From positions 3,657-67,656 of the forward strand of contig JAEOTC010000111.1 of NCBI GenBank assembly GCA_016840035.1: a stretch of DNA of 64,000 nt, written 5' to 3'. The notes under the pieces were generated by a model that did no database searches, had not been told where the DNA came from, and saw only the letters and a list, made by a program, of their open reading frames with translations. Source of the DNA: Candidatus Hodarchaeota archaeon (GTDB lineage Archaea; Asgardarchaeota; Heimdallarchaeia; Hodarchaeales; Hodarchaeaceae). Shown here piece by piece: positions 28,839 through 43,454 of this stretch. The position numbers and the translations under genes are program-made. How positions within the stretch are numbered: the first letter of the stretch is position 1; every line of letters begins with the position of its first letter.

Positions 28839-31763
28839 CTATGAACAGTTCACGCAACGAGCAACGACTTCTTCATTCTTAATTTTGACCTTCACTCGTC
28901 CACAGGTATCACAAACTTCTGTTCCACACTTCTTACAGACTGATAACAGCTCTGGAGCAAAAGATTTTTTACATCCTTGACATTGTTTGGGAGTATGTTC
29001 AGGACAATAAGTTGCTTCAGTATTAGGATCAAATGCGCTGCATTCCCCGCATAAACTCTGTTCACAAACCTTACATACTTCAGAATGGTCAAGACAAGCA
29101 GTTTTTCCACATTTTTGGCAAAATGTGATGTGTTCACTACAAAAGAGTTTCAAGCAGGTTGTACATACAAAAGTGGGAGGAGAAATTTCAACAGCCAATA
29201 ATGATTGATAGTAATTCTCAGTGCTTATCTGAGGACCGCATCCTTCACACATAAGTTCTGCATTACCATTATAGAGATTAAGATTCAAATGGAACTGATT
29301 AACAGTATCTTGATCACTTTGGTTTAGTTTGATTGAAAGAGGTATTGATAAACGTGGAACCCAATAAACTGATTTTTCAATAATAGAAACATCTGCTTTT
29401 CCAGGTCGATAAAGATCAGGTGGTACTCCTTGGCTTTTAAGAACCTCAATAGATTTATGAAAAGCCTCATAATTTTCCTGTTTTTCTTTAAATAATGCTT
29501 GCCGCTTTTTCTCATTGTTGGCGATTTGTTTTCTAAGTTCTTTCACTCGATCTTCATGTCTCATCTGTTTATTAGAGGTAGAATCAATGGATCTTTCGAT
29601 GGCTCTTATTGAACGTCCCTCTGCGGCACGTGCCTTCCTTTCAGCCTCTAGATTTTCAAGTCTCGAAAGAGTATCATCAAGCTTCTGATTCTCAGTTTGG
29701 AGTTTCTCCTCTAATCCACTAATTTGTGTGGATAATTTGGATAACTCTTTTCCAACTTTCTTCCCAGCAAGTTTTGAAATCTCATTTCTCTCGAATTCTC
29801 TTATGCGTTCCTGATAGATAGATTCCGCTTCAGGAAACGGATTTTGTGTATAGTACCAAATTAAGTTCTCAGGTAGTTTAGTAATTACCTCTTTATCGAA
29901 ATCAAGGAATTTATATCCAGTGAGGGGCTGAATTGCTAAATCCTTGGCAGGGAGGGAAGAAGCATGAATCCCTTCAATAGTAGTAGAATTCCAATCGATC
30001 TTTCGCAGATCAAATGTTCGTGACATTTCCTCCTTTATCTGAACTGGAAATTGTAGTTGTCCTTCTTTAATAGTTCTTTTGATGTCTATCAAAGTTTTTG
30101 TAAAGTACAGTGGAGAGTAGAAAATATTATAGGCTCCAAACTCGAGATTAATTCCATCCTGTTCTGGATTACCTCTGAGGCTCAACCTCTCCATGATTAC
30201 TGGGATGTACTCTTCATTTTCGGGCTTGATCTTAGGTTCAAGAAATCTTTCGGTAATTTTCCCCATAGCAGGCTTCTTAGCTTTGACTGAAACTGCAGAA
30301 ATAACTGTATCCTTTTTCATTTCTGGAGTTGGTTTCTTTTCTTCAGGTTGTACCTTTTTGGGTTTTGGGGGTTTAAGTGTAAGAGCAGATATTTCCGAAT
30401 TCGTTAATGGTCCTTTATGTAGACTTAGTAACCACCGTGTTTGAAGCATATTAACTCCATATCTGGGATTATAAGCAATGAAATTCCCAGGTTTCAGTGC
30501 TCTAATTTTACTCATTAATGATCTAAATTCCTCTTCAGTTCCACCACCACCTTCAAAGACAGGTTTTAGTGCACCTTGGACTTTAGCGATGTCTTGATTG
30601 GTTGCCAATCTACCCAAAACCCAAGTAGCGATATTTGATAACCCACGATAATCTAAATCTCCTGGATTTTGAGTTGCTAGTACACATCCCAACCCTGCTG
30701 CTCTTGCCTGTTTTAACAAGATTAAAAGCGCTGTTTTTGACGGAGGACTCAGAGATCCAGCAGGCATGAATCCATATAACTCATCAAAGTACATGATGGC
30801 GCGTAAACGACTTGTACCTCCTTTTGACCAGGCCCACCTTTGAACTTCCCCTAAAATTTCAGCAACAAAAGTATTTTTTTCGTCTGAATCAGTAATCTTA
30901 CGTAAGTCAAAAACAATTATAGGTGTTTTCTTCTCTTTGGTTGCTAAACCAATAAGCTTATCAAAATCAAGCTCTACACCTGGAACTGCACGGACCATCA
31001 AAGCATTAATATTACGAGCTAATTCTTGACGTTTAGTAGTTGAGATGAATTTATCAACAGAAAGAGAACCCACTTTTTTAAATGGGGGGTCTTGTATTCG
31101 TTCTATTAGAAGGTCTAAACCAACGGTATTTTGCTTTTCGTTCTCCCAAACATGTCGAATAATGTTATTTAGATAGATAACACGATTGTCTGTCGATGCT
31201 GATGTTCCAATTCCAACTCTTGATAGTAACAATTGTATTTTGAGATCTAACGCGCTTAAAACCGCATCAGGCGATTCTTCCATCATCTTTGAATAATTCT
31301 TGGGCTTTTCAAAGTGTGGAGTAAGAGAAATCTGGACTCCAGAGGAATTTTTTGGAGTAATTAATACTGTAGCCACTTTATCTGAATACTCTGCCTCTGC
31401 GGAAAGGTAATCATCACCAAAAGATTCTTCAAGTTTTTCCTCATATAAATTCACCCAATCTTCAGCTATTTCCTCTGGATCTCCACCGCCACGATCGTCT
31501 GCCTCCACTTTTGCATGAATAAGTAATTTATCTTTCGAAAAATCCCCAAAACCAATCCCTAAAGCACCAATATCTCCTTTAGGATCAATAGCAATTACAG
31601 GGATATTTGATCTGACTGCTTCTTCAACTATTGACTTGCACACAACTGTTTTCCCTGAACCACTTGCCCCTAATACCGCAGCATGTGTTAAAAAGGTTGT
31701 AGAAGGTAATTCAAATCTCTCTCCCTCGCTTAGTTTTCCAAGAAAAAACTTCGGATCAGCCAT
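28839..31763 (-). CDS. HerA/DUF853-like P-loop ATPase fused to Lys/Pro linker, coiled coil and Cys-rich multi-zinc C-terminus
   Basis: Walker A GASGSGKT followed by PVIAIDPKGDIG, Walker B AIMYFDELYGFMP, and VLATQNPGDLDY. Coiled-coil-like segment LSKLSTQISGLEEKLQTENQKLDDTLSRLENLEAERKA. The last 139 aa carry 21 Cys and 3 His in CxxC/CxxH pairs. Confidence 0.75.
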   Translation of the reverse strand: MADPKFFLGKLSEGERFELPSTTFLTHAAVLGASGSGKTVVCKSIVEEAVRSNIPVIAIDPKGDIGALGIGFGDFSKDKLLIHAKVEADDRGGGDPEEIAEDWVNLYEEKLEESFGDDYLSAEAEYSDKVATVLITPKNSSGVQISLTPHFEKPKNYSKMMEESPDAVLSALDLKIQLLLSRVGIGTSASTDNRVIYLNNIIRHVWENEKQNTVGLDLLIERIQDPPFKKVGSLSVDKFISTTKRQELARNINALMVRAVPGVELDFDKLIGLATKEKKTPIIVFDLRKITDSDEKNTFVAEILGEVQRWAWSKGGTSRLRAIMYFDELYGFMPAGSLSPPSKTALLILLKQARAAGLGCVLATQNPGDLDYRGLSNIATWVLGRLATNQDIAKVQGALKPVFEGGGGTEEEFRSLMSKIRALKPGNFIAYNPRYGVNMLQTRWLLSLHKGPLTNSEISALTLKPPKPKKVQPEEKKPTPEMKKDTVISAVSVKAKKPAMGKITERFLEPKIKPENEEYIPVIMERLSLRGNPEQDGINLEFGAYNIFYSPLYFTKTLIDIKRTIKEGQLQFPVQIKEEMSRTFDLRKIDWNSTTIEGIHASSLPAKDLAIQPLTGYKFLDFDKEVITKLPENLIWYYTQNPFPEAESIYQERIREFERNEISKLAGKKVGKELSKLSTQISGLEEKLQTENQKLDDTLSRLENLEAERKARAAEGRSIRAIERSIDSTSNKQMRHEDRVKELRKQIANNEKKRQALFKEKQENYEAFHKSIEVLKSQGVPPDLYRPGKADVSIIEKSVYWVPRLSIPLSIKLNQSDQDTVNQFHLNLNLYNGNAELMCEGCGPQISTENYYQSLLAVEISPPTFVCTTCLKLFCSEHITFCQKCGKTACLDHSEVCKVCEQSLCGECSAFDPNTEATYCPEHTPKQCQGCKKSFAPELLSVCKKCGTEVCDTCGRVKVKIKNEEVVARCVNCS

Positions 31764-31894
31764 TTTCCTTTACCACATTATTGTATTTGATGAAAATGAA
31801 TTAAATTAATAAATGAATCCTTTAGTTCACGGAATATATTAAACTAGTCAATTGCAAAAATACCAAGCATTTTCTATTATTTTGGAGGTTGACC

Positions 31895-32920
31895 ATGTCT
31901 TCAGCAAAATTTCCTATAATTACCTTAGAAGGATCTCCAGAAGAGATAGGTATACAACACGGAGAAATTTTGAAAAATAAAATTCATTCTACAGTTACCT
32001 GGTATAAAAAGGTCATATCAAAAGAAGAAAAACAGATATTAACGCTAGTGGAAATTTTTAAATTAACAATCGAGAATTTTGATCCCACTTACGCCTCTGA
32101 AATCGAAGCCATTGCGACTGGGGCTGATATAAATTCTAACTGGATCTATATGCTAAATTCACGTTCTGAAATCATGAATATCTTTCAAAATGAGTGTACT
32201 GCGGCATTTTTTAAGTCGTCAGCAATTTTAGGTCAGAACTGGGATTGGGCCGAAGATCTCGAAAATCTTGCCGTGATCATGAAAATTAAGAAACAAGATG
32301 ACAATAAACCTGACATACTCATGATGACGGAACCAGGCATTATTGGAAAGATTGGATTTAATTCAAATGGATTGGGAGTATGTCTAAATTTTCTTAATTC
32401 CGGAAAATTACCACGAGGTGTTCCAATACATATCCTTCTAAGAAAAGTATTGGAATTATCGAGTATTAACCAAGTTGGAAGATCTATTGGACCTTTTATG
32501 AGTGGAAAATCTGCAAATATTTTGATTGGAGAAAAGTCTGGAGAATATATCGATATCGAATTTGCTAATGATGAGCATTATTATCCGAACACAACTTCAG
32601 ATGCTTTTATTCACACAAATCATTATTTGATGAACAATGCTTTAAACAGTGATACAGAGAAATTAGCCAGTTCTTTCAGCAGGTACAATAAAGCCTTGAA
32701 CATTATTAAGAATAATCCCTCTAAAACAGTAGAGGATATGAAAGGAATATTATTGGATCGCACGAACAAAGCTCTCCCTATCTGTCGCCCCTATGTAGAT
32801 AATCCTGATATTGGGACAGTTGGTACAATATGTACTATAATCATGGACCTGAAAAACGGAAAAATGCACATCACAAAAGGTAGTCCCCTGAATACTCCTT
32901 TTTCTTCTGTTGAACTATAA
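31895..32920 (+). CDS. peptidase C45 / acyl-CoA:6-APA acyltransferase-like Ntn-hydrolase
   Basis: LEGSPEEIGIQHGE N-terminus, candidate autoprocessing nucleophile in QNECTAAFF, and GQNWDW. GGAGGT lies 5 nt upstream of the ATG at 31895 (the track lists TTG at 31889). Confidence 0.7.
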   Translation: MSSAKFPIITLEGSPEEIGIQHGEILKNKIHSTVTWYKKVISKEEKQILTLVEIFKLTIENFDPTYASEIEAIATGADINSNWIYMLNSRSEIMNIFQNECTAAFFKSSAILGQNWDWAEDLENLAVIMKIKKQDDNKPDILMMTEPGIIGKIGFNSNGLGVCLNFLNSGKLPRGVPIHILLRKVLELSSINQVGRSIGPFMSGKSANILIGEKSGEYIDIEFANDEHYYPNTTSDAFIHTNHYLMNNALNSDTEKLASSFSRYNKALNIIKNNPSKTVEDMKGILLDRTNKALPICRPYVDNPDIGTVGTICTIIMDLKNGKMHITKGSPLNTPFSSVEL

Positions 32921-32999
32921 AGCGAGAATTATCTCTCCTTTACCACATTGGTTTCTATTTAAAGGACCCTTTTTATCCATTTTTTAAGGTGTTACTCAT

Positions 33000-34040
33000 A
33001 TGACTGGATATTCTATCAAGGAATTTGATCCCCCAAACGTTGAAGATGATCAATTTTGGGATAATTTCTATTCTTTCTATACAAAATTTGTCAAGGACAT
33101 ACATCCTAACGATCCTCTTACTCCTAAACCACGAATAGTAAAATCATTGAAAGATCCTCATCCAGACTATCACATCAACCATTGGTTGGTATATACTTCC
33201 GATAAGGAAATCGTTGGTTGGGCAGATAATTATATTTCAAAGGAAACTCATCCTGCATACGATACAAACAAACATGTGGCAGGTTGTGATACAGTTATAT
33301 TAAAAGAACATCGTCATAACGGATTAGGGACACAACTCTTCCGATACCACTTGAAAATCGTAAAAAAGTATAATCGTACAATAATCCAAGCTGGAACCTC
33401 TGAGGAATCAGGGCATAATTTCTTAAGGAAATTTGGTGGGAAAGAAGCAATTCAAGGTTCAGAGAATCGTTTGCAGATGAATGAGGTAGATTGGTCACTT
33501 ATGCAGCAGTGGATAGATGATGGCCCAGAAAGAGCAAAAGAGGTGAATCTTGAACGATTCGTTGATGTTTCCGATTCTGATATTGAGGAATATTGTGTAA
33601 TCTATACTGAAACCATGAATCAACAACCCTTCGGAGAGCTTGAAGGGAGAGTAAAGGAAACACCCGATTCACGAAGACAGAGTGAGGAGAGACATCGTAA
33701 AAGAGGAGGAAAATGGACAACTCTGATTTCAAGAGAGAAAAATGGAAGGATCAGTGGTTTAACAGAGGTTTTTTATTACCCAGATAAACCTTCAATGCTT
33801 TATCAAAATTTAACTGGAGTAAAAGAAGAATATCGAGGTAAGGGACTGGGAAAATGGCTTAAAGCAACAATGCTCAAATGGATAAGTGAAGAATACCCAG
33901 ATGTTAAAACAATTGTCACTGGTAATGCCACTACTAATGCACCCATGCTTTCAATTAACCAGAGAATGGGATTTAAAGAATATAAGTCAGGATCGGAATA
34001 TAAATTTCAGGTTGAAGAGCTTGAAAAGCTACTCGATTAA
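33000..34040 (+). CDS. tandem GNAT-domain acetyltransferase
   Basis: Two acetyl-CoA loops: EHRHNGLGTQLFRY and EYRGKGLGKWLKATML, plus NAPMLSINQRMGF. Confidence 0.75.
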   Translation: MTGYSIKEFDPPNVEDDQFWDNFYSFYTKFVKDIHPNDPLTPKPRIVKSLKDPHPDYHINHWLVYTSDKEIVGWADNYISKETHPAYDTNKHVAGCDTVILKEHRHNGLGTQLFRYHLKIVKKYNRTIIQAGTSEESGHNFLRKFGGKEAIQGSENRLQMNEVDWSLMQQWIDDGPERAKEVNLERFVDVSDSDIEEYCVIYTETMNQQPFGELEGRVKETPDSRRQSEERHRKRGGKWTTLISREKNGRISGLTEVFYYPDKPSMLYQNLTGVKEEYRGKGLGKWLKATMLKWISEEYPDVKTIVTGNATTNAPMLSINQRMGFKEYKSGSEYKFQVEELEKLLD

Positions 34041-34292: not shown

Positions 34293-34877
34293 GTGGTAAA
34301 TGTTGGCATTTTAGGAGATATGAACTGCGGGAAAACATCAGTATTTGTACGATTTATGAATTCATTAGCTGCCTCAAATGAGAAAATTATTGCTGGTTCT
34401 CCTGGAGGACCAGAAATGTATACTACTCAGACTGTAGATTTTATTAGATTCACTCATAAGGGATTTATTCATGTCTTATACGGCACTGGAGGACACACAA
34501 CACCTATCACTGATTATTACCGTGTTTACGTTTTAAGAAATGCCAACCGATTCCTTTGCATGTTTGATTTGTCGATTGAATTAGAACCTCAACTAGCTTT
34601 CTACAAGAACCTTGAGATTCCAACGAAGCAAGTAACAATCTTCCTGAACAAATATGATCTCGCACAAGAGAACTATGCTGAATATAAAGAGAAAGTAGAA
34701 GATTTTTTCATTAACGACCAGAAAAAACTGATCAAAGAAATTCTCCCTACAGTCGCGATAAAAGTCGAGGAAGGGAAATTCAAAAAAGAAACAGAAAATT
34801 GTCTGAAAGGAATCCTTGATTTGTGTGAATTTGATAAAGACGCCTCTGCATTCGATGTTTGGAATGGTCAAGGATAA
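34293..34877 (+). CDS. small P-loop GTPase with atypical G3 motif
   Basis: G1 GDMNCGKTS, G2 Thr in TTQTVDF, G3 LYGTGGH (Tyr where the DxxG Asp is expected), G4 LNKYDL (NKxD). GTG start with AAGGAG 10 nt upstream. Confidence 0.7.
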   Translation: MVNVGILGDMNCGKTSVFVRFMNSLAASNEKIIAGSPGGPEMYTTQTVDFIRFTHKGFIHVLYGTGGHTTPITDYYRVYVLRNANRFLCMFDLSIELEPQLAFYKNLEIPTKQVTIFLNKYDLAQENYAEYKEKVEDFFINDQKKLIKEILPTVAIKVEEGKFKKETENCLKGILDLCEFDKDASAFDVWNGQG

Positions 34878-34900
34878 GAATTAAAAAAAAGGTAGGAATA

Positions 34901-35806
34901 ATGGAATCTTCTGATCCTTTTGCTCAACTGGTTGAAACATTATCAGTAATAGAGCATCAGAATCGAATTTTATGCCTGTTGGCGGTGTATTTGGGTCAAA
35001 AAGCAGATCAGAATACAATTCAAGGTATTACTGATATTCTTTCATCTCTTTTAGGGAAAGATGAGCAATTTACTACAGCGAAAACCCGAGGTCTGATCAC
35101 TTCATTAGTGAATGGAGGAATCTTAGAACGGGAACGTGAGAAAGTAATAAGCTCTACGAAAGTTTCCTTCCATTCTATTAGTCCTCTTGGGTATATAGTC
35201 CTGCTATATGTCCTACAAACCTATATTATTAAGATTGACCCTGCTTCTATTAATTGGGATACCACTCGTTTTCAAGACTACGCCGATTCAGAAGAAAAAA
35301 TGCTCTACTATACCATAGATGCATTACTTATTCAAGAGCCTAAAATCAACCGAATTCTTACTTCCCTACGAAGTGGAAAGGATCCCAAGAAAATAAGGCT
35401 ATCGAAACCACTAAATATTCCTTTAGAGAAACTATTTTCAGGAAAAACAGGGAATACAGTATTTAAAATTATGGAGGAATTGATCTGGGATTACTTGCAT
35501 TCTAACACTGGATTAAGTAAATCCACACTCGATCAAACATCAGATTCCTCAATAAGTAGTCCTTTGAAAAAACTTTCCACTTTTTTGATGGTAGAAGAAA
35601 ATTGGGGCAAGGAAAGACGTTTTAGACTGTCAATTCACGGGATATTTCTTTTACCTGTATTTGCTTTGCTTATAAAGCATTTTTCTGTGGATAAATCAAT
35701 ATTCCCATCATTAAAATTATCTCGCTTAGAAAAGGATGAGAATTATTGGATTGCCCTTACAAAGTTAGGAAATTCATTCTTTAAAACAGTATACAGAATA
35801 TCTTAA
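34901..35806 (+). CDS. hypothetical protein, probable tandem winged-helix domains
   Basis: The ATG at 34901 lies 23 nt after the GTPase stop; the track's 34859 start would overlap that gene. Two helix-turn-helix-plus-beta-wing-like segments: ILCLLAVYLGQKADQNTIQGITDIL...GGILEREREKVISSTKVSFHSISPLG and FKIMEELIWDYLHSNTGLSKSTL...MVEENWGKERRFRLSIHG. The fold call is unverified. Confidence 0.4.
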   Translation: MESSDPFAQLVETLSVIEHQNRILCLLAVYLGQKADQNTIQGITDILSSLLGKDEQFTTAKTRGLITSLVNGGILEREREKVISSTKVSFHSISPLGYIVLLYVLQTYIIKIDPASINWDTTRFQDYADSEEKMLYYTIDALLIQEPKINRILTSLRSGKDPKKIRLSKPLNIPLEKLFSGKTGNTVFKIMEELIWDYLHSNTGLSKSTLDQTSDSSISSPLKKLSTFLMVEENWGKERRFRLSIHGIFLLPVFALLIKHFSVDKSIFPSLKLSRLEKDENYWIALTKLGNSFFKTVYRIS

Positions 35807-35886: not shown

Positions 35887-37284
35887 GTGCTGAAGATTTC
35901 TGATGAAGCAGGAAATCTACATTATCTCCCTCTTGTAGATATTCATACTCACATAGGAAGGGTGAAAATAGCAACCACAAAGGGTAGTTCTCAACGAATA
36001 AACCAACCTCAAGACATTACCAACCTATACCAGAAATTACAATATGAAATTACCTCACGGATTAGTCAGAACCAAGATAAGTATCCTATTAACATTCCTG
36101 ATGCTCAGGAATGTGTAGAACCCCTTCTTCCTATTGTAAACACAATATTAACCCATCAATCAGCAAAATCAAGAGCTTTCTTGGTAGATGTGATAGTTAC
36201 ATTCCCATTTAATGATATATTTCACTTAAAAACCTCCCCCAAATTTGTAAAAAGCAATCGATATGTACGTTATCAAGTGAATACTTTCGATAACACCTTT
36301 AGATTTCTTCCCTTCTGCCGAGTAGATCCTACCGATTCTGATGCTGTAAATGAGATTCAGAGTTCTATCACTCAGGGAATGTATGGCTTGAAACTCCATC
36401 CACTGTCTCAAGGATGGATTGACAGAATTAAAACTGCAGAGACTATGAATGTATTGAAAACTGCTGGAAATCTGAACATTCCAGTAATTTTCGATGTACC
36501 CAACAAGGGTGTGGCTCTTGATATTACAACCATCACACAAGAGGCGCGTCAAGAATCAGAAAATCCTGTCAAAGTAATACTAGGACATACAGGATTCGAT
36601 TATTCTTCCTCAGAGATATTTGATTGTCTGTCTCAGGAGGGGATGTATGCAGAGACTTCTGGTATGAGAGGAAAGGATGTTGAGATTTTTTTTAATAATG
36701 TCATATCGGTCCCTGATTGGGAAAATAAACTTTTATTTGGCACGGATCACAATTATTTTAGTGTTCTACAGGCAACAGATGTCATAACATTTCTAATTTC
36801 AAACAAGTTTCAAATAATGTTGTTAGAGAATGATATTGAAGCAAAACCACTAGAAATTGCATTTAAAATATTAGGAGGCAATGCTTTAGAGATTATCCCA
36901 ACTGCATGGGATCCTATAACAGAAAAAACCCCTCAATTAAAATTTAAAGTTTTGAAAGACGTTTTCATACAATTTCTAAAGAAATACATAACTTCGGAGG
37001 GAAACTATCTGCGGGTTGATCAAGGCTTCGATGAATCCAGAAAAGAGGTAGTTCAAATCATCACTTTTGGAACTAGTAATACAAAATTCTCTTTTATTAT
37101 ATTTGAAACATCCAATCTACGAGAAATATTATTACAATCTATTCATCCAGCTATTCGAAAAGTAAATTATAGTGAGCAAGCAATATTTCCCGTGCTTTCA
37201 ACTTTAAAATCATTAAAGAGAGCAAAAAAACTTTCCCTAGAGAAATTGCAGGCAACAGTGATTAAAATTTTGTCACAAGAGTGA
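35887..37284 (+). CDS. amidohydrolase-2-like TIM-barrel metal hydrolase with about 130-aa C-terminal extension
   Basis: VDIHTHIGR (HxH), YGLKLHPLSQGW, ILGHTGFDY, LFGTDHNY (metal Asp). GTG start with GAGGT 8 nt upstream. Confidence 0.6.
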   Translation: MLKISDEAGNLHYLPLVDIHTHIGRVKIATTKGSSQRINQPQDITNLYQKLQYEITSRISQNQDKYPINIPDAQECVEPLLPIVNTILTHQSAKSRAFLVDVIVTFPFNDIFHLKTSPKFVKSNRYVRYQVNTFDNTFRFLPFCRVDPTDSDAVNEIQSSITQGMYGLKLHPLSQGWIDRIKTAETMNVLKTAGNLNIPVIFDVPNKGVALDITTITQEARQESENPVKVILGHTGFDYSSSEIFDCLSQEGMYAETSGMRGKDVEIFFNNVISVPDWENKLLFGTDHNYFSVLQATDVITFLISNKFQIMLLENDIEAKPLEIAFKILGGNALEIIPTAWDPITEKTPQLKFKVLKDVFIQFLKKYITSEGNYLRVDQGFDESRKEVVQIITFGTSNTKFSFIIFETSNLREILLQSIHPAIRKVNYSEQAIFPVLSTLKSLKRAKKLSLEKLQATVIKILSQE

Positions 37285-40200
37285 ACATAATGGAATTAAA
37301 AGACTACATATTAGAGACACAATTATATTTTTCCCATGGGATAGAAGTTGAAAATCATTTAGTGAACGAAAGCACAGGGGAAGTTCTAGTCGGAAATGAA
37401 CTGATTGAGACTTGGGAACAAATGTTTGCTGGTGCAGTGAAATACTTAGAAAAGTTGAAAAAAGCAAAACACACACCAAAAGCCATAGCTAAGAAGATCG
37501 TGAAAATTGAGGTAACGGAGGAATTAAAAAGAGAGAAAAGACTCAATTTTATCTTCGTTCACTATCGATTAGGAAAAAAGACAATTCGAGTCAATGTCTT
37601 TGGTCCTGATCCAAATATATCCCAGATCACTTGGTTATTAGAACTTGTTACCCCTCCATGTGAGTATTTGGAAGAAATTGCCTTCTGGATTGATTCTCTT
37701 TACGCTGCCGCTGCTCATGGCCTTTCAAAAGTAAAAAATAAATGTACTCTGTTACCTTTAGGATTAAATCCCATGGAAAAACGAGTACGAAGTGGTTTGA
37801 CTTGTGGCGAACATCATCACATAGGTATTCCCTCCTTTTTCCGTGCACCCGTTTATAACATGCTGAGAAACTATATTCCCCACCTAATTGCGTTAAGTTC
37901 AACTTCTCCGTTTCTCGACCAGAAACCAAGTAGTAAAATAATTTTCAAGGAGAAAGATGGGAAAAAACAAGTGATTAGCAGAGGAATTCATTCGTATCGA
38001 TTAGCAAACAATACTGGTCAAATGGGACCAAACATCCCTCAGTACTTGCCTATTATTGATGATATGACATCTCGAGAAGACTTTGCCAACTCGATACGCA
38101 AAGTTCCCCCTGAGGATCGGATGATAGATCTTTTTCCATATACGGACTATTCGACAATAGAGTTAAGATTTTTCGATGCCCAGCCTTATAAAGAAAACCG
38201 CTTAGCTATGGTTTTACTTATCCAAGCATTAGCTCAGAAAACAAAAAAGTTAATTAAAGATAAATTACCTGTTCCAACTGTATCTTCAAAGAGTTTATAT
38301 GAGAATCGCCGAAAATCAATTCAATTTGGTCTTTTAGCTCAATTTACAAGAGATGAAACCCTAACAGGCGAGTTTGCATGGTATTACAATTATGATATTG
38401 AGAATGGAGTAAAAGCCTCAAAACTATTACATTCCGTTCTAGCCATGCTTATATATATTGAAGATGAAATACTGGATCTTGGTGAGAAATATGTCGACCA
38501 GGTACTATTACCAGTCTTGGGTTCAAAGAAATTTGCCCCTCCATTCACGGTATGTGAATATCTTCTTTCTCTTTACACAGAAAAAAAAGAAAATGCAGCT
38601 GAACTACTCAAAGAATTATACTATGAGGAAAAGCTTTCATACACTCCCGAAGTAGCAGGTGATTTCTCATCATTCCTTGTTGAAAATCCTCCTGACTCTT
38701 TCACAGAGGTCGACACTCAGAAAGCGAACTTAAGTCAGCTTTTGAAGAAAGATATTTCCACAAGAGATGTATTTGCAAGCAAGCCCAAACCAAAACCCAA
38801 AAAACGAAAAAAACCGAAACCAGTAGTTCCCAAAGAAGAACCAGTCGAAGTAACGAAGAAAAAGAAACCAGAGGTAGTACGAGCCAAAAAAGAACCTAAG
38901 AAAAAGGTTCCTAGTAAAAAACCAAAGGTTGTAGAGCCTACTAAACCTAAAAAGCCTGTTAAAAAAGTTACACCTAAGAAGGAAGTAAAAAAGAAACCTA
39001 TAGATCCGAAACTTACTCCTATCAAAGAAGAACCGCAGGTTTTCTCCGCATTTGATGAAAATGAGGATCTTGAGATCTATTCTCCGATGATCGAAATTGA
39101 ACCTAAGTATCAGAAAATTAATTCTAAAATTGCGAATATAATGAGAACACGCCGTCAAGAAATTGAGACAAAGCGTGTAGTCTTCTTTCGTGAACATCTG
39201 AAGGAGGAAGAGTCGTCTTTCAAACCTTTCCCAAAAAAAAGAGCAGCGATTTTTCCCGCTCTATTTTCTGGCCCTGAATTATTTGGATATATTGAACTTA
39301 CATTTGGTGACATTAAGAAAGTTATGTATCAATTTCGTAATAATCCAATTACTCTGAAATTTTATGATAACCAAACAGACAAAGAAATCTCTTCCATTAG
39401 AACTTTTATTGATATTTCTAGAATTGAAAAACGTCAAATGGTAAGAATTCCATGTTCCGTTAACCTAGGAGAATTATATGGGAAGTTACAAATCAGAGTA
39501 GAAGCCGTCACTTCCACAAATCACAGATTACTACCTGAAAACTTTACATTTAAAACAGAACGCAAAGATGACATTAGTATTTCTCCTAAAGAATTCTATA
39601 TAACAAGTAACTTTGGTTCTGTAGAGTGCATTTACAAAGCGACCAATGATTCCAAGAAAGAAGAACGAGGGGAATTAACACTCATATTAGCAACACAAGC
39701 AGCAGCAACACCAATAGTCCTTTATGAGGAGAAATTTTCTCTTCAGCCTCGTGCTTCATATGAGTTGGCCAGGAGTATTGATTTATCCATTGATTACCAG
39801 CATAGTTCTTTTTATATCATTGCCCGTGTAACTACAGGGATGCTTAAGAAAAATCGATCATTTAAGAGTATACGCGTACCAGTATTACGTGAAATTGTGG
39901 TTGATTGGTCTTATGAAACAAAGGCTGGTTCTAAAAATGACCTTTGGCAAGGGGTGGAATCCAAAACACACTACTCTGTCGATTTTGTTTTTCATTTTCT
40001 TCGATCTTTACCTCCTGTAACCATAACTATTTATATAAACACGTTTCCTCAAGGAGAAACAAAGAAATTAACGAGCTTACGGTTGAAGCGGTACATAGAT
40101 AAAGGGGATGAGTTTCGTGCACCAACAGTCAAATTCAAAACCCCTAAAAAATGCGGTTACTTAATATTCGATGCACAAATTCGGACAGAAAAAGGTATTC

Positions 40201-40289
40201 TACCAATGCATTTAATCTCCGAACCAATTGGGGTATATGCATTGACTACTAAAGCCACATTCGAAGAAAGACGAAATTTAGATCTGTAA
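37281..40289 (+). CDS. GCS2/YbdK-type carboxylate-amine ligase fused to Lys/Pro-rich linker and about 430-aa beta-rich C-terminal region
   Basis: Motif-by-motif match to my recollection of E. coli YbdK: HGIEVENHLVN (LGIELEMQVVN), LLELVTPPCEY (MLELATDVC), CGEHHHIGIP (GQHVHVG), LRNYIPHLIALSSTSPF (FVPHFIALSAASPY), STIELRFFDAQP (GTVEVRVMDTP). The GTG at 37281 overlaps the upstream stop by 4 nt; the ATG at 37290 is an alternative. Confidence 0.8.
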   Translation: MNIMELKDYILETQLYFSHGIEVENHLVNESTGEVLVGNELIETWEQMFAGAVKYLEKLKKAKHTPKAIAKKIVKIEVTEELKREKRLNFIFVHYRLGKKTIRVNVFGPDPNISQITWLLELVTPPCEYLEEIAFWIDSLYAAAAHGLSKVKNKCTLLPLGLNPMEKRVRSGLTCGEHHHIGIPSFFRAPVYNMLRNYIPHLIALSSTSPFLDQKPSSKIIFKEKDGKKQVISRGIHSYRLANNTGQMGPNIPQYLPIIDDMTSREDFANSIRKVPPEDRMIDLFPYTDYSTIELRFFDAQPYKENRLAMVLLIQALAQKTKKLIKDKLPVPTVSSKSLYENRRKSIQFGLLAQFTRDETLTGEFAWYYNYDIENGVKASKLLHSVLAMLIYIEDEILDLGEKYVDQVLLPVLGSKKFAPPFTVCEYLLSLYTEKKENAAELLKELYYEEKLSYTPEVAGDFSSFLVENPPDSFTEVDTQKANLSQLLKKDISTRDVFASKPKPKPKKRKKPKPVVPKEEPVEVTKKKKPEVVRAKKEPKKKVPSKKPKVVEPTKPKKPVKKVTPKKEVKKKPIDPKLTPIKEEPQVFSAFDENEDLEIYSPMIEIEPKYQKINSKIANIMRTRRQEIETKRVVFFREHLKEEESSFKPFPKKRAAIFPALFSGPELFGYIELTFGDIKKVMYQFRNNPITLKFYDNQTDKEISSIRTFIDISRIEKRQMVRIPCSVNLGELYGKLQIRVEAVTSTNHRLLPENFTFKTERKDDISISPKEFYITSNFGSVECIYKATNDSKKEERGELTLILATQAAATPIVLYEEKFSLQPRASYELARSIDLSIDYQHSSFYIIARVTTGMLKKNRSFKSIRVPVLREIVVDWSYETKAGSKNDLWQGVESKTHYSVDFVFHFLRSLPPVTITIYINTFPQGETKKLTSLRLKRYIDKGDEFRAPTVKFKTPKKCGYLIFDAQIRTEKGILPMHLISEPIGVYALTTKATFEERRNLDL
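38781..39015 (+). repeat. low-complexity Lys/Pro-coding tract (aaa/aag/cca/cct rich) inside the ligase fusion gene
   Basis: Encodes KPKPKPKKRKKPKPVVPKEEPVEVTKKKKPEVVRAKKEPKKKVPSKKPKVVEPTKPKKPVKKVTPKKEVKKKPIDPK. It also generates long Phe-rich antisense pseudo-ORFs. Confidence 0.7.
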
Positions 40290-40394: not shown

Positions 40395-41684
40395 ATGACC
40401 AAAATTCCATTGAATGTTGTAAATGTTGGCAATATTGAGGGAAGAGCTTATCTTCATCCTCAAGACATAGAAAAATTGGAAATTAATGAATTCGATTATG
40501 TAAAAATGGTAACTGAATGGGAGGATTGGGGAGCAGTTCAGATTCTTTTATCAGATGAGGTAGAGCAGGGTACAATTGCAGTAGATGGTAGCGTACTTTC
40601 ATCAGCGAATATATCGGATGGTGATGCGGTTGAAGTCGACGTAGTTACTGCTACAGCAGGTATCAAATCGATTAAGCTGGGAATCGAACCTCTTGCTGGT
40701 CAAGAAGTGGAAGAAGCGATTTTATGGATTGCTACTGAATTTGAACAACTTTCTACCCTTTTAAAAAATCGTCCAGTGTTCAATAATCTACAAATCGGAT
40801 GGGAAGATTGTCCAATAGGTAATTTAACAGTCAGATTTCTCGGTGCAGACCCTCCGATACCTGAGGAGAATATTGGAATTGTGGATCCCACTGGAAGAGA
40901 AGTGGAGATTAATATAATTCCATTTACTGAAATGAGTTTTAACGCCGTATTGGTTCTTGATGTCTCAGGAAGCATGTCCAAGAAAGATATGAAAGTACAG
41001 AACATTAGTGGTGCATTAGAAGGTTTAAAAAAGGGATTAGATGAGTCAAATGAACTGAATCAGTTTATAGAAAAATTCCAAGATGGAAAGAAAGTTTCTA
41101 GAGTTGATGCAGCTGCGATGGCAATAATGTTATTCATGTCATTGAAGATTGCTAAAGGATGGGGAGAACAAATCCAATTGTTAACTTTTTCCGGTGAAGT
41201 GGAAAAATTTGCTCTCGGAGAGGCAAACGTAATCTCATGTGTTGGAGAAACGAAGAAAGCAGGAATCGAAAGCATCATAGACCATGTTGTTCAGAAAACT
41301 GCTGAAAGTACTGGTTTAACATTCCTAAGTGGTGCTATAGATCAAGCATATAAGAGCATCGCTAGTTTTGATGATAATCCCACTATCCAGAAGAAGAATC
41401 CAACCATGATTATTGTTCTTACTGATGGTAATCCAAATAAAGGAAATGGGCTAGGAGTCAATCCCATTCCAGTTGTCAAACAGCATGTTGAACAATTACC
41501 TGAAGTCGTGCTGTATGCAATTGGATTAGGAGAAGCTGATCGGTTAATGCTTCGCAAAATCGGTGAAATGGGTCGTGGGGGAAGCCTGATGGCGGACGAC
41601 TTGGAAACACTGATCGATTTCTATGATTCACTTGCTCAGAATTTCCAGATGGTCGTAAAAATGAAGAAGGAGCCCGAAGACTAA
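40395..41684 (+). CDS. CDC48-N-like (double-psi barrel-like) domain fused to a von Willebrand factor A domain
   Basis: N-terminus RAYLHPQDIEKLEINEFDYVKMV...GTIAVDGSVLSSANISDGDAVEV resembles CDC48/VAT N domains. vWA MIDAS AVLVLDVSGSMS (DxSxS), plus LLTFSG and IIVLTDGNPN. AAGGAG lies upstream. Confidence 0.7.
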   Translation: MTKIPLNVVNVGNIEGRAYLHPQDIEKLEINEFDYVKMVTEWEDWGAVQILLSDEVEQGTIAVDGSVLSSANISDGDAVEVDVVTATAGIKSIKLGIEPLAGQEVEEAILWIATEFEQLSTLLKNRPVFNNLQIGWEDCPIGNLTVRFLGADPPIPEENIGIVDPTGREVEINIIPFTEMSFNAVLVLDVSGSMSKKDMKVQNISGALEGLKKGLDESNELNQFIEKFQDGKKVSRVDAAAMAIMLFMSLKIAKGWGEQIQLLTFSGEVEKFALGEANVISCVGETKKAGIESIIDHVVQKTAESTGLTFLSGAIDQAYKSIASFDDNPTIQKKNPTMIIVLTDGNPNKGNGLGVNPIPVVKQHVEQLPEVVLYAIGLGEADRLMLRKIGEMGRGGSLMADDLETLIDFYDSLAQNFQMVVKMKKEPED

Positions 41685-41930: not shown

Positions 41931-43454
41931 ATGCCAGAATACAAGGTCGTAACCTCTGATTTAGATCCAAAAGACGCTGTAATTGTGTCTACCGAAAATA
42001 ATCAGCATATAGTAACACAAGCAAAATTCTCGTTATCATTTAAAGGAACTGAAGAAAAGGTTGGACAGGTTTTCAAATTAAAATGCTTTTTAGAAGAAGA
42101 TGAAATAGGACTCTCGCAGGTCATGATGAATCGACTTGGAGTAGCAGAAGGGGATCTAGTCCGTTTGCAATCTATTGGAAGAACAATCTCCAGAAGCTTT
42201 TCTCTAATTAAGCAAAGAATAGCTCAACCAGGAAGAATGTTTACTAAAAACGAAATAGATCAGATTATTAGTGACATCACTCTGGATAATATGACTCCAC
42301 TTGAAGAATCCGTTTTTCTCACTTCCCAAATGCTCCAAGAGTGGAGTATCGGCGAGGTTGAACATCTAACCAATGCCATAGCTTATTCGGGACAAGTAAT
42401 AAATTGGGGGGAAACTGTGATCTTTGACAAGCATTCTTTAGGTGGTGTTCCCGGTAACAAAGTTACACTTCTTGTTGTTCCCATCATTGCAGCTGCTGGT
42501 TTAACTATTCCCAAAACCTCATCTCGTGCCATTACAAGCCCTTCAGGTACAGCTGATACTATGGAAGCACTTGGGTGTACGATTGAATTCACAATTGATG
42601 AAATGGTGGACATGGCACATAAGGTTGGAGGCCTTATTGCATGGACTGGAGGGTTAAATCTTGTTCCCGCAGATGAAAAGATAATCCGTGATGTTCAGTA
42701 TCCATTAGGGATCGATCCAGAACCAATGATGATGGCTTCTGTGATTTCTAAGAAAGTCGCCATGGGAGTGAAATTTTTAGTACTTGATATACCAACAGGT
42801 TATGGTACGAAAGTAGCATCTCTTGATGATGGAAAGCGAATTGCCCATAAATTTGCTGAATTAGGGCGATTACTTGGTATTAGAATTGAAAGTGGCATTA
42901 CTTACGGTAGCTCACCTGTTGGTAACGCTATTGGCCCTGCATTAGAAGCACAAGAGGCTCTTACTAGTCTTAAAAATCCTTTAGAGGCCCCTCATTCTCT
43001 AGTAGGCAAGAGTACATCTCTCGCAGGGATCCTCTTAGAGATGGCTGGAAAAGCAATTACAGGTACCGGGCAAGAGATGGCGTATGAGATACTAAATTCT
43101 GGGAAGGCATATCAGAAATTTCAGGAGATTATAGAAGCTCAAGATGCCGATCCAAATCTTAAACCAGAAGATATCGAGATTGGAAAAGCGAGTTATGACT
43201 ATCTAGCCCCGCAAAGTGGGTATGTAGTTGAAATCAACAATAAAGTGATTGTTCGAGCTGCTCGTGCAGCTGGTGCTCCAATGGATAAACGTGCAGGAGT
43301 TTTTTTCCATAAGAAGAAAGATTCTGTGAAACGAGGAGAACCTCTATTTACGCTGTACTCAGCAAATGAGAAAAAACTTACCGCTGCTCAAGCAGAGTTA
43401 ACTAAAGGAGATTTACCAGTAACAATTGAGGGTATGCTATTAGCACGAGAATAA
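41931..43454 (+). CDS. deoA: AMP phosphorylase (archaeal thymidine-phosphorylase-family enzyme)
   Basis: About 500-aa archaeal form with an N-terminal extension. DKHSLGGVPGNKVTL, KTSSRAITSPSGTADTMEALG, PLGIDPEPMMMASVISKK. Confidence 0.85.
   Translation: MPEYKVVTSDLDPKDAVIVSTENNQHIVTQAKFSLSFKGTEEKVGQVFKLKCFLEEDEIGLSQVMMNRLGVAEGDLVRLQSIGRTISRSFSLIKQRIAQPGRMFTKNEIDQIISDITLDNMTPLEESVFLTSQMLQEWSIGEVEHLTNAIAYSGQVINWGETVIFDKHSLGGVPGNKVTLLVVPIIAAAGLTIPKTSSRAITSPSGTADTMEALGCTIEFTIDEMVDMAHKVGGLIAWTGGLNLVPADEKIIRDVQYPLGIDPEPMMMASVISKKVAMGVKFLVLDIPTGYGTKVASLDDGKRIAHKFAELGRLLGIRIESGITYGSSPVGNAIGPALEAQEALTSLKNPLEAPHSLVGKSTSLAGILLEMAGKAITGTGQEMAYEILNSGKAYQKFQEIIEAQDADPNLKPEDIEIGKASYDYLAPQSGYVVEINNKVIVRAARAAGAPMDKRAGVFFHKKKDSVKRGEPLFTLYSANEKKLTAAQAELTKGDLPVTIEGMLLARE

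Follow-up and report, generated by a model that had tools for sequence, protein, structure and literature searches.

The locus and its reading frame

The window considered here, meaning the whole stretch of DNA that was analysed, comprises 64,000 nucleotides from a Candidatus Hodarchaeota archaeon (Asgardarchaeota; Heimdallarchaeia; Hodarchaeales; GenBank assembly GCA_016840035.1, contig JAEOTC010000111.1, positions 3,657 to 67,656 of the forward strand). It contains a gene for a large ligase, GCS2L, which is preceded by the gene for a putative amidohydrolase (AMH) and followed by the gene for a protein with a VWA domain (Table 1). The ligase gene is an uninterrupted open reading frame of 1002 codons at 37281..40289 (+), the end coordinate including the stop codon, and public records label the product "glutamate-cysteine ligase family protein" or "hypothetical". 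Its GTG at 37281 shares bases with the TGA of the AMH gene, whose stop thus overlaps or abuts the ligase start, and at locus L001 the ligase begins in an ATGA overlap with its upstream gene; translation of the ligase is probably coupled to that of AMH. An ATG at 37290 opens the reading MELKDY..., and because this agrees with the start of an 83%-identical orthologue at locus L005, the true start is probably ATG 37290, giving a protein of 999 aa. The frame of 1002 codons reported in a preliminary description of this DNA, made from the sequence alone, therefore exists, with 999 aa as the likelier length. The G+C content of the window is 33-39%, with no compositional break at the ligase gene, and scans of the window for tRNAs and Rfam families returned no feature.

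Domain architecture

The full protein was modelled with AlphaFold2 using an alignment (A1) of 107 sequences, and the model has a mean predicted local distance difference test score (pLDDT) of 83.8. Residues 5-475 form a globular N-domain and residues 650-746, 754-868 and 872-990 form three beta-sandwiches, all with pLDDT >90. A helix (residues 479-495) stands between the N-domain and the linker, and residues 498-615 are disordered at pLDDT 30-50. When residues 607-1002 were modelled alone, pLDDT was 90.5 and the predicted template modelling score (pTM) was 0.83; these high scores indicate that the three sandwiches pack as a single rigid unit. As modelled, the protein thus has a three-part architecture of ligase, disordered tether and rigid triple sandwich, which confirms the original observation. 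The preliminary description had called such an arrangement unusual for GCS2 enzymes, and this is borne out, the C-terminal region being no known domain routinely fused to GCS2. Some of its details needed correction: the ligase core, placed at residues 1-490, is present but ends at about residue 475 in the model, and the three beta-sandwich modules are indeed there, but measure about 95-120 aa rather than 110-140 aa and are preceded by a long helix. The three peptides quoted as examples of these modules fall one each in sandwiches 1, 2 and 3.

Table 1. Coordinates of the ligase gene, its predicted domains and motifs, its two partners and two further genes of the cluster
Feature	Position	Strand	Basis
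GCS2L (ligase gene)	37281..40289	+	GTG 37281 open reading frame; full-length orthologues in Hodarchaeales at 30-83% identity
N-terminal YbdK/GCS2-fold ligase domain (residues 5-475)	37293..38705	+	AlphaFold2 pLDDT >90; Foldseek; profile against PDB
HGIEVEN, GhExE metal-binding signature (residues 19-25; E22, E24)	37335..37355	+	conservation; YbdK alignment
FGPDPNISQITWLLELVTPP, near-invariant family-specific block with invariant E121	37599..37658	+	conservation in 107 sequences
GEHHHIG...NYIPHLIALSSTSPF (H178, H180 invariant), sole stretch detected by Pfam GCS2	37806..37913	+	Pfam; conservation; profile
TIELRFFDAQ, E-x-R motif (E294, R296, D299 invariant)	38154..38183	+	conservation; profile
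Disordered linker (residues 498-615)	38772..39125	+	pLDDT 30-50; composition
Long helix before the beta module (residues 616-643)	39126..39209	+	AlphaFold2 models
Beta-sandwich 1 (residues 650-746)	39228..39518	+	AlphaFold2 models; Foldseek
Beta-sandwich 2 (residues 754-868)	39540..39884	+	AlphaFold2 models; Foldseek
Beta-sandwich 3 (residues 872-990), conserved K-x-P-K motif at 952-957	39894..40250	+	AlphaFold2 models; conservation; Foldseek
AMH, partner 1, 465 aa, putative Amidohydro_2-type TIM-barrel metallohydrolase	35887..37284	+	Pfam in orthologues; invariant residues; synteny
VWA protein, partner 2, 429 aa, CDC48_N-like double-psi barrel and VWA, acidic	40395..41684	+	Pfam; MIDAS (metal-ion-dependent adhesion site); synteny; charge
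Small Ras/Roc-like GTPase, 194 aa	34293-34877	+	Hodarchaeales loci only
315-aa protein without family match, overlapping the GTPase by 19 nt	34859-35806	+	Hodarchaeales loci only

The N-terminal ligase domain

As a single sequence, the N-domain matches Pfam GCS2 (PF04107) at 28.4 bits against a gathering cut-off of 21, and this match covers 48 residues (169-216; model positions 118-167 of 291). The NCBIfam equivalogs TIGR02050 and NF010039-45 are all missed (59.8 bits against 176.4 for the best, <=59 against 332-437 for the others), the best NCBIfam matches being carboxylate-amine or Glu-Cys ligase models, and a single-sequence search of the PDB reached an E-value of about 0.7 at best. The family profile, when compared with the PDB, aligned three colinear motifs with those of the YbdK structures 1r8g and 1tt4 (E 2e-10), and YbdK structures also rank first in a Foldseek search with the AlphaFold2 model (E 3e-13, probability 1.00, template modelling (TM) score 0.72-0.75 on the target, 16% identity). 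The preliminary claim that this domain matches every YbdK signature was therefore overstated for the single sequence; the kinship with YbdK is well founded only at the level of the family profile and of the fold (TM 0.75).

In the profile alignment, pFthGiEiE corresponds to YbdK PFTLGIELE, GeHhHig...PHLIALsxnSPF to GQHVHVG...PHFIALSAASPY, and TIElRfFDaq to TVEVRVMDTP. Both the central G-x-H-x-H and P-H-x-I-A-L-S-x-x-S-P block and the C-terminal T-x-E-x-R-x-x-D motif are present. Seven residues (E121, H178, H180, H201, E294, R296, D299) do not vary among the 107 sequences, the distant members of which share just 23-30% identity, and at least 90% of the sequences keep E22 and E24. The GhExE motif that carries these two glutamates is the signature of carboxylate-amine/ammonia ligases, a superfamily that includes the Pup ligase PafA (PMC2588565). 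For the window ligase, no Pup-ligase model reached E <=0.01 in Pfam or NCBIfam, and the same scans gave no Gln-synt match, the ligase matching GCS2-type models only.

By its profile and predicted fold, the N-domain is a divergent, insertion-bearing member of the GCS2 superfamily, and by the NCBIfam cut-offs it is no equivalog of YbdK or of any glutamate-cysteine ligase. Because every canonical metal, ATP and acyl-phosphate motif of the carboxylate-amine ligases is kept, the domain is very probably an active, ATP-dependent enzyme that forms amide bonds. It has its fold and three catalytic motifs in common with YbdK (PF04107; 1r8g, 1tt4), and presumably also the ATP-dependent acyl-phosphate chemistry. 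Whereas YbdK is a single domain of about 370 aa, the window ligase adds insertions, which make the ligase domain about 120 aa larger, as well as the tether and the triple beta-sandwich. Also unlike YbdK, it has family-specific invariant blocks such as FGPDPNISQITW and belongs to a conserved triad with the VWA protein and the amidohydrolase.

The C-terminal beta-sandwich module

Pfam gave no match to residues 571-1002 even at E 1, and scans of eight diverse family members found no C-terminal domain there, save one sub-threshold ASH match. In Foldseek, the C-terminal model resembled tandem Ig-like arrays at E-values of 2e-11 to 1e-7, with TM scores of only 0.2-0.3 and 10-14% identity. The best of these matches were the macroglobulin (MG) arrays of complement C5/C3, bacterial alpha-2-macroglobulin and CD109, together with the C-terminal barrels of TG2, TG3 and protein 4.2; FN3 arrays matched as well. 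The module differs from alpha-2-macroglobulin and complement in having no thioester, no bait region and no Pfam A2M or FN3 match, and the window ligase, unlike proteins with macroglobulin arrays, is cytoplasmic, neither a signal peptide nor a membrane segment having been noted. As modelled, the fold is a generic macroglobulin/FN3-like beta-sandwich. Structure prediction and comparison thus recovered the three sandwiches anticipated in the preliminary description, and the possibility that the region is a well-known domain fails on the lack of a Pfam match, here and in the eight other members, and on the small number of relatives.

Conserved positions in the module are Gly and Pro only, so we read the C-terminal block as a scaffold or binding platform and not as an enzyme. 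Searches with jackhmmer showed that the module is homologous among Hodarchaeales, other Heimdallarchaeia and the 1340-1410-aa proteins of Loki/Freya type, the link to Thor being marginal. When a profile of 20 C-terminal sequences (A3) was compared, without a word index, with 1.84 billion cluster representatives, just 26 proteins were found at E <=1e-3, most of which are members of the ligase family or fragments that start inside or after the linker. One of them, P0130 (L085:1022-2020), is a true stand-alone triple beta-sandwich of 332 aa with unrelated genes upstream on the opposite strand, and therefore the module can exist without the ligase domain. Another, P0135 (L086), lies at a contig edge, with a gene for the VWA partner immediately after it. 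The search for the region as an independent domain, as the preliminary description had proposed, thus yielded one stand-alone copy, and otherwise almost all of the 26 relatives come from the ligase family. On this evidence the module is a sequence family of its own, nearly confined to these ligases and, it appears, undescribed.

Distribution and the conserved triad

A full-length search returned 123 matches of 950-1400 aa, all from Asgard metagenome-assembled genomes (MAGs). A scan of one genome per GTDB species, in which the FGPDPNISQITWLLELVTPP block served as the pattern, found 145 relatives, all Asgard apart from a few doubtfully labelled records. The ligase occurs in genomes of Heimdall, Loki, Freya/Jord, Sigyn and Thor type, with none found elsewhere, and the order of N-domain, linker and C-terminal module recurs in >100 proteins from independent assemblies of several Asgard classes. 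A different architecture is seen in P0119 (1239 aa, from a JGI metagenome), which has its GCS2 motif at about residue 760, and hence a long N-terminal extension, and double zinc-ribbon domains at its C-terminus.

The Pfam Amidohydro_2 match of the window AMH scores 13.9 bits against a cut-off of 26.4 (E 0.046); its orthologues score 30-43 bits. Residues D18, H20, H22, K169, H171, H234 and D287, which include the metal ligands, are invariant. The AMH profile had no significant match in the PDB, with weak matches to Amidohydro_2 decarboxylases (LigW and gamma-resorcylate decarboxylase) at E >=0.02, so that AMH may be either a hydrolase or a decarboxylase. The VWA partner exceeds the cut-offs of both Pfam VWA and VWA_2, its MIDAS is complete (D189-x-S191-x-S193, T309 and D344 invariant in 24 sequences), and its profile matched only ITIH heavy chains and archaeal VWA2 in the PDB. 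Its N-terminal barrel gives a weak match (TIGR03327, E 8e-4) to the N-terminal domain of AMP phosphorylase.

Homologues of both partners lie near the ligase in four further loci that span the Heimdall, Freya and Thor lineages. Likewise, all 13 GTDB loci that extend 8 kb or more beyond the ligase in both directions contain both partners within 10 kb; among 80 GTDB loci, many of them with truncated flanks, a VWA homologue was found in 46 and an AMH homologue in 37. Gene order varies with lineage. In Hodarchaeales, AMH, ligase and VWA genes are contiguous in that order; in other Heimdall genomes, AMH precedes the ligase and VWA lies about 7 kb upstream on the opposite strand; in Freya/Jord, the ligase is followed by convergent VWA and AMH genes; and in Thor, VWA and AMH lie in that order about 6-7 kb downstream of the ligase. 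In two-ligase genomes of the Freya/Jord group, the second ligase copy has a VWA and AMH pair of its own (L051, L056, L061). Examples of the triad in two complete copies, from Freyarchaeia/Jordarchaeia, are L035 and L051 (both on CP147778.1) and L032 and L061 (both from isolate RPF2); the second triad copy in Freya/Jord has neither of two features described below, the basic linker and the acidic tail.

This conservation of gene content provides strong evidence that the triad is a functional module, a decisive setting that the preliminary description had overlooked. As far as the searches of sequence collections reach, the ligase, AMH and VWA families are each restricted to Asgard archaea. The literature on Asgard archaea in combination with GCS2, glutamate-cysteine or carboxylate-amine ligases, VWA and amidohydrolases held no description of the family, and both the architecture of ligase, tether and triple sandwich and the Asgard-wide triad appear to be undescribed, the catalytic fold being already known.

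The VWA family also has paralogues with a C-terminal ubiquitin, encoded at L087:10001-11764 (a Hodarchaeota MAG) and L089:2225-3964 (a Lokiarchaeota MAG), with a further case in P0322. These paralogues are 36-49% identical to the VWA partner and are encoded inside clusters with ThiF-E1, UQ_con-E2, JAB and ubiquitin genes. The fused ubiquitin ends ...PASTAG(G) and shares 54% identity with the free ubiquitin (120 aa) that its own cluster encodes; no ligase or AMH homologue was found among the neighbours. Since the ubiquitin-fused paralogues occur in E1/E2/JAB clusters, the VWA family is tied to signalling at the level of proteins. The partner has the VWA fold with a MIDAS in common with Rpn10-like and archaeal VWA proteins, and the ubiquitin-fused paralogue, with its E1/E2/JAB genes, recalls the VWA proteins of the ubiquitin-proteasome system. 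In contrast to Rpn10, the partner has an N-terminal CDC48_N-like barrel and no ubiquitin-interacting motifs, and homology to Rpn10 is not supported by the PDB profile matches.

The basic linker and the acidic tail

The linker core (residues 501-578; nt 38781-39014) has 32 Lys, 2 Arg and 17 Pro in 78 residues and a net charge of +26, so that the coordinates (38781-39015) and the basic composition (34 K/R) first reported for it stand. A tandem-repeat scan found no notable DNA repeat in it. The core is followed by a short acidic stretch, FSAFDENEDLEIY...EPKYQKI, which is conserved within the order. Basic, low-complexity linkers of about 80 to about 400 residues occur in the proteins of Heimdall and Loki type, with their composition kept but not their sequence. 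The Thorarchaeia-type and second-paralogue proteins have no linker and retain the rest of the module.

The window VWA partner is acidic overall (isoelectric point 4.5, net charge -29), and the VWA partners of the Heimdall clade outside Hodarchaeales carry poly-acidic C-terminal tails of 50-60 residues. These tails (for instance L002:906-2354(-), L021:819-2303(-) and L031:1142-2617(-), among others) are poly-Asp/Glu with a conserved E-E-Y-G-G-A/P-G-E motif, and many end in ...EDEY or ...EDDY, reminiscent of the acidic -EEY tail of alpha-tubulin. Across 37 loci, the charge of the basic patch of the ligase correlates with that of the acidic tail of the neighbouring VWA protein (Spearman 0.91), a relationship that is clade-structured. 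Thor and paralogue-2 proteins have neither basic patch nor tail. In Hodarchaeales the patch ranges from +14 to +31 and the tail from -1 to -2, in Freya/Jord from +15 to +58 and from -1 to -7, and in other Heimdall genomes from +50 to +121 and from -27 to -36.

This covariation is suggestive, but not proof, of an electrostatic leash between ligase and VWA partner. Since linker charge tracks the VWA tail and the linker is absent in Thor and paralogue-2 proteins, electrostatics between proteins is favoured over tethering to nucleic acid or membrane. Of the roles offered for the linker in the preliminary description, a flexible tether to a binding platform fits best, and nucleic-acid or membrane tethering finds no support in these data.

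Possible functions of the module

We tentatively lean, with less than even confidence, towards a scaffolded and probably protein-directed ligase that works within an Asgard-only module of three proteins. In this scheme, the three proteins would form a complex, in which the ligase would activate a carboxylate on a macromolecule, most likely a protein, and join it to an amine, following the logic of PafA or of tail-editing enzymes. The substrate would be held or presented by the platform of beta-sandwiches together with the VWA protein; alternatively, the VWA protein might be what is modified. AMH could reverse the modification or prime the substrate. The basic tether would then tie the ligase electrostatically to the acidic VWA partner with its poly-acidic tail, and would not be a nucleic-acid anchor.

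PafA provides the precedent, as a GCS2-related fold that ligates a protein carboxylate to lysine (PMC2588565). PafA and Dop belong to the same carboxylate-amine ligase superfamily as the window ligase (PMC2588565), and they show that a protein ligase with a glutamine synthetase (GS) fold may be paired in one locus with an enzyme that cleaves amides. The likeness is in logic only. The hydrolase here is an amidohydrolase TIM barrel and no PafA paralogue, and unlike in PafA/Dop systems there are no Pup-like, proteasome or Mpa genes near the ligase in the inspected loci, nor a Pfam Pup-ligase match. The five loci inspected had no Pup, proteasome or AAA genes, and neither a small Pup-like open reading frame nor a conserved C-terminal residue on the partners was common to all clades.

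Several observations count against a protein-directed ligase. The nearest solved relatives of both enzymes (YbdK and, weakly, the LigW/gamma-resorcylate decarboxylases) act on small molecules, and FluG offers a small-molecule precedent for an amidohydrolase that is coupled to a GS-fold ligase (PMC6478659). The neighbourhood has no conserved gene for a proteasome or a CDC48 ATPase, and no conserved substrate or tag protein. Furthermore, the charge covariation rests on just 4-5 or so independent clades, and the sequence was recovered from DNA metagenomes only, with no expression data found.

The main alternative is a small-molecule pathway, in which the ligase makes a gamma-glutamyl-type or other amide (a thiol, osmolyte or signal), AMH supplies or recycles the amine, as has been proposed for pairs of the FluG/NodGS type, and the sandwiches and the VWA protein merely organise an oligomer; we consider this alternative unlikely on balance, if far from negligible. 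The closest solved relative, YbdK, is a weak gamma-Glu-Cys ligase, the best NCBIfam models are of carboxylate-amine or Glu-Cys type, and the weak PDB matches of AMH are to small-molecule Amidohydro_2 enzymes. In FluG, an amidohydrolase and a GS-like ligase are fused, and the two also occur side by side in bacterial clusters (PMC6478659). In FluG/NodGS-type systems of fungi, plants and Streptomyces (SCO6961/6962), an amidohydrolase is coupled to a GS-fold ligase by fusion or adjacency, as here, and AMH keeps the H-x-H and the invariant Lys, His and Asp as metal ligands. However, the FluG/NodGS ligase is GSI-like where that of the window is GCS2-like, and those systems, whose substrates are thought to be small molecules, have no VWA partner, beta-sandwich platform or disordered tether. 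No known small-molecule ligase pathway has a role for a partner with MIDAS-VWA and CDC48_N domains, which is kept here in every lineage, or for a beta-sandwich platform of 350 aa with a charge-matched disordered tether. The VWA paralogue in ubiquitin clusters and the wide margin by which all Glu-Cys ligase equivalog cut-offs are missed likewise speak against it. It is improbable that the linker, which is histone-H1-like in its K/P/S/T content, instead anchors the ligase on DNA, RNA or acidic lipids. Its KPKK/KKPxV composition does recall eukaryotic basic tails, the Heimdall and Loki groups have both kept a basic linker, and the profile weakly matches the Lys-rich tails of Nop56/58, CBF5 and CAF-1, but those matches are of low complexity at E >=0.015. 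Thor-type and paralogue-2 proteins dispense with the linker yet keep the rest of the module, linker charge rises with the acidity of the VWA tail, and the Pfam and NCBIfam scans found no nucleic-acid-binding domain or membrane segment.

Two further explanations concern the locus more than the enzyme. An anti-virus defence island with a divergent HerA-like ATPase might be suspected from the HerA-like gene (28839-31763, -), which matches the PADLOC HerA/mad8 models and precedes the cluster at every Hodarchaeales locus; this is very improbable, as loci of the other clades do not have the gene, PADLOC was negative for the ligase, AMH, VWA, GTPase and 315-aa proteins, and the triad has the distribution of vertical inheritance, near-universal in Asgard archaea and not patchy. 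It should also be noted that the linker is of low complexity and that coverage in the source metagenomes was low, at about 5x, conditions under which an assembly chimera or a false fusion across the linker might arise, as the preliminary description had cautioned for 38.7-39.1 kb. Such an artefact is effectively refuted by the recurrence of the domain order in >100 proteins of independent assemblies and by Logan contigs from three separate marine-sediment runs, which are 100% identical to the gene and cross the linker without mismatch, joint or loose end (X1, record 2, 38239-39479; X2, 38681-39133; X3, 38575-38948).

A bolder version of the protein-directed ligase, which we regard as speculative and rather unlikely, would be a system of Asgard protein modification that works without E1 and E2. 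A GS-fold "writer" would act on the VWA protein or its clients by amidating or extending their acidic residues or tails, and a metallo-amidohydrolase "eraser" would reverse this, making the module in its logic an archaeal analogue of pupylation or of the tyrosination and glutamylation of tubulin tails, entangled with Asgard ubiquitin through the VWA-ubiquitin paralogue.

Implications

No known prokaryotes are closer to eukaryotes than the Asgard archaea, and the majority of the proteins specific to their lineage are uncharacterised. The large ligase described here is highly conserved, has two fixed partners and is lineage-defining in Asgard, and the family has no eukaryotic homologue. The current label of "glutamate-cysteine ligase" would misleadingly imply thiol synthesis of the glutathione type in metabolic reconstructions. 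Should the module act on proteins, it would represent a second covalent-modification system, unrelated to ubiquitin, in the archaeal ancestors of eukaryotes, and a clean case of a disordered basic tether that co-evolves with the acidic tail of a partner. On a conservative reading, the carboxylate-amine ligase superfamily gains a new multidomain branch, and a beta-sandwich sequence family is newly defined.

Other genes of the neighbourhood

In Hodarchaeales, the GTPase and the 315-aa protein of Table 1 precede AMH as a pair, and it is uncertain whether they belong to the system. Unrelated Arf/Ras-like GTPases are encoded within 10 kb of the ligase at L002 and L003, and at the latter locus one neighbour faintly matches a longin domain. 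The HerA/DUF87-like ATPase has 974 aa, is divergent from the cluster in orientation, and in its central region is weakly like the coiled coils of SMC/JetC. Between it and the GTPase (31889-34040, +) lie an acyl-CoA:6-APA acyltransferase-like gene of the N-terminal nucleophile (Ntn) hydrolase type (PF03417) and then a tandem-GNAT acetyltransferase gene, a pair that is absent from the orthologous locus L001. At L002:16095-16556, about 3 kb downstream of the ligase, a ubiquitin-conjugating E2 (UQ_con) is encoded, which may be a coincidence. The gene after the VWA partner in the window (41931-43454, +; 507 aa) looks like a member of the archaeal AMP phosphorylase/thymidine phosphorylase family.

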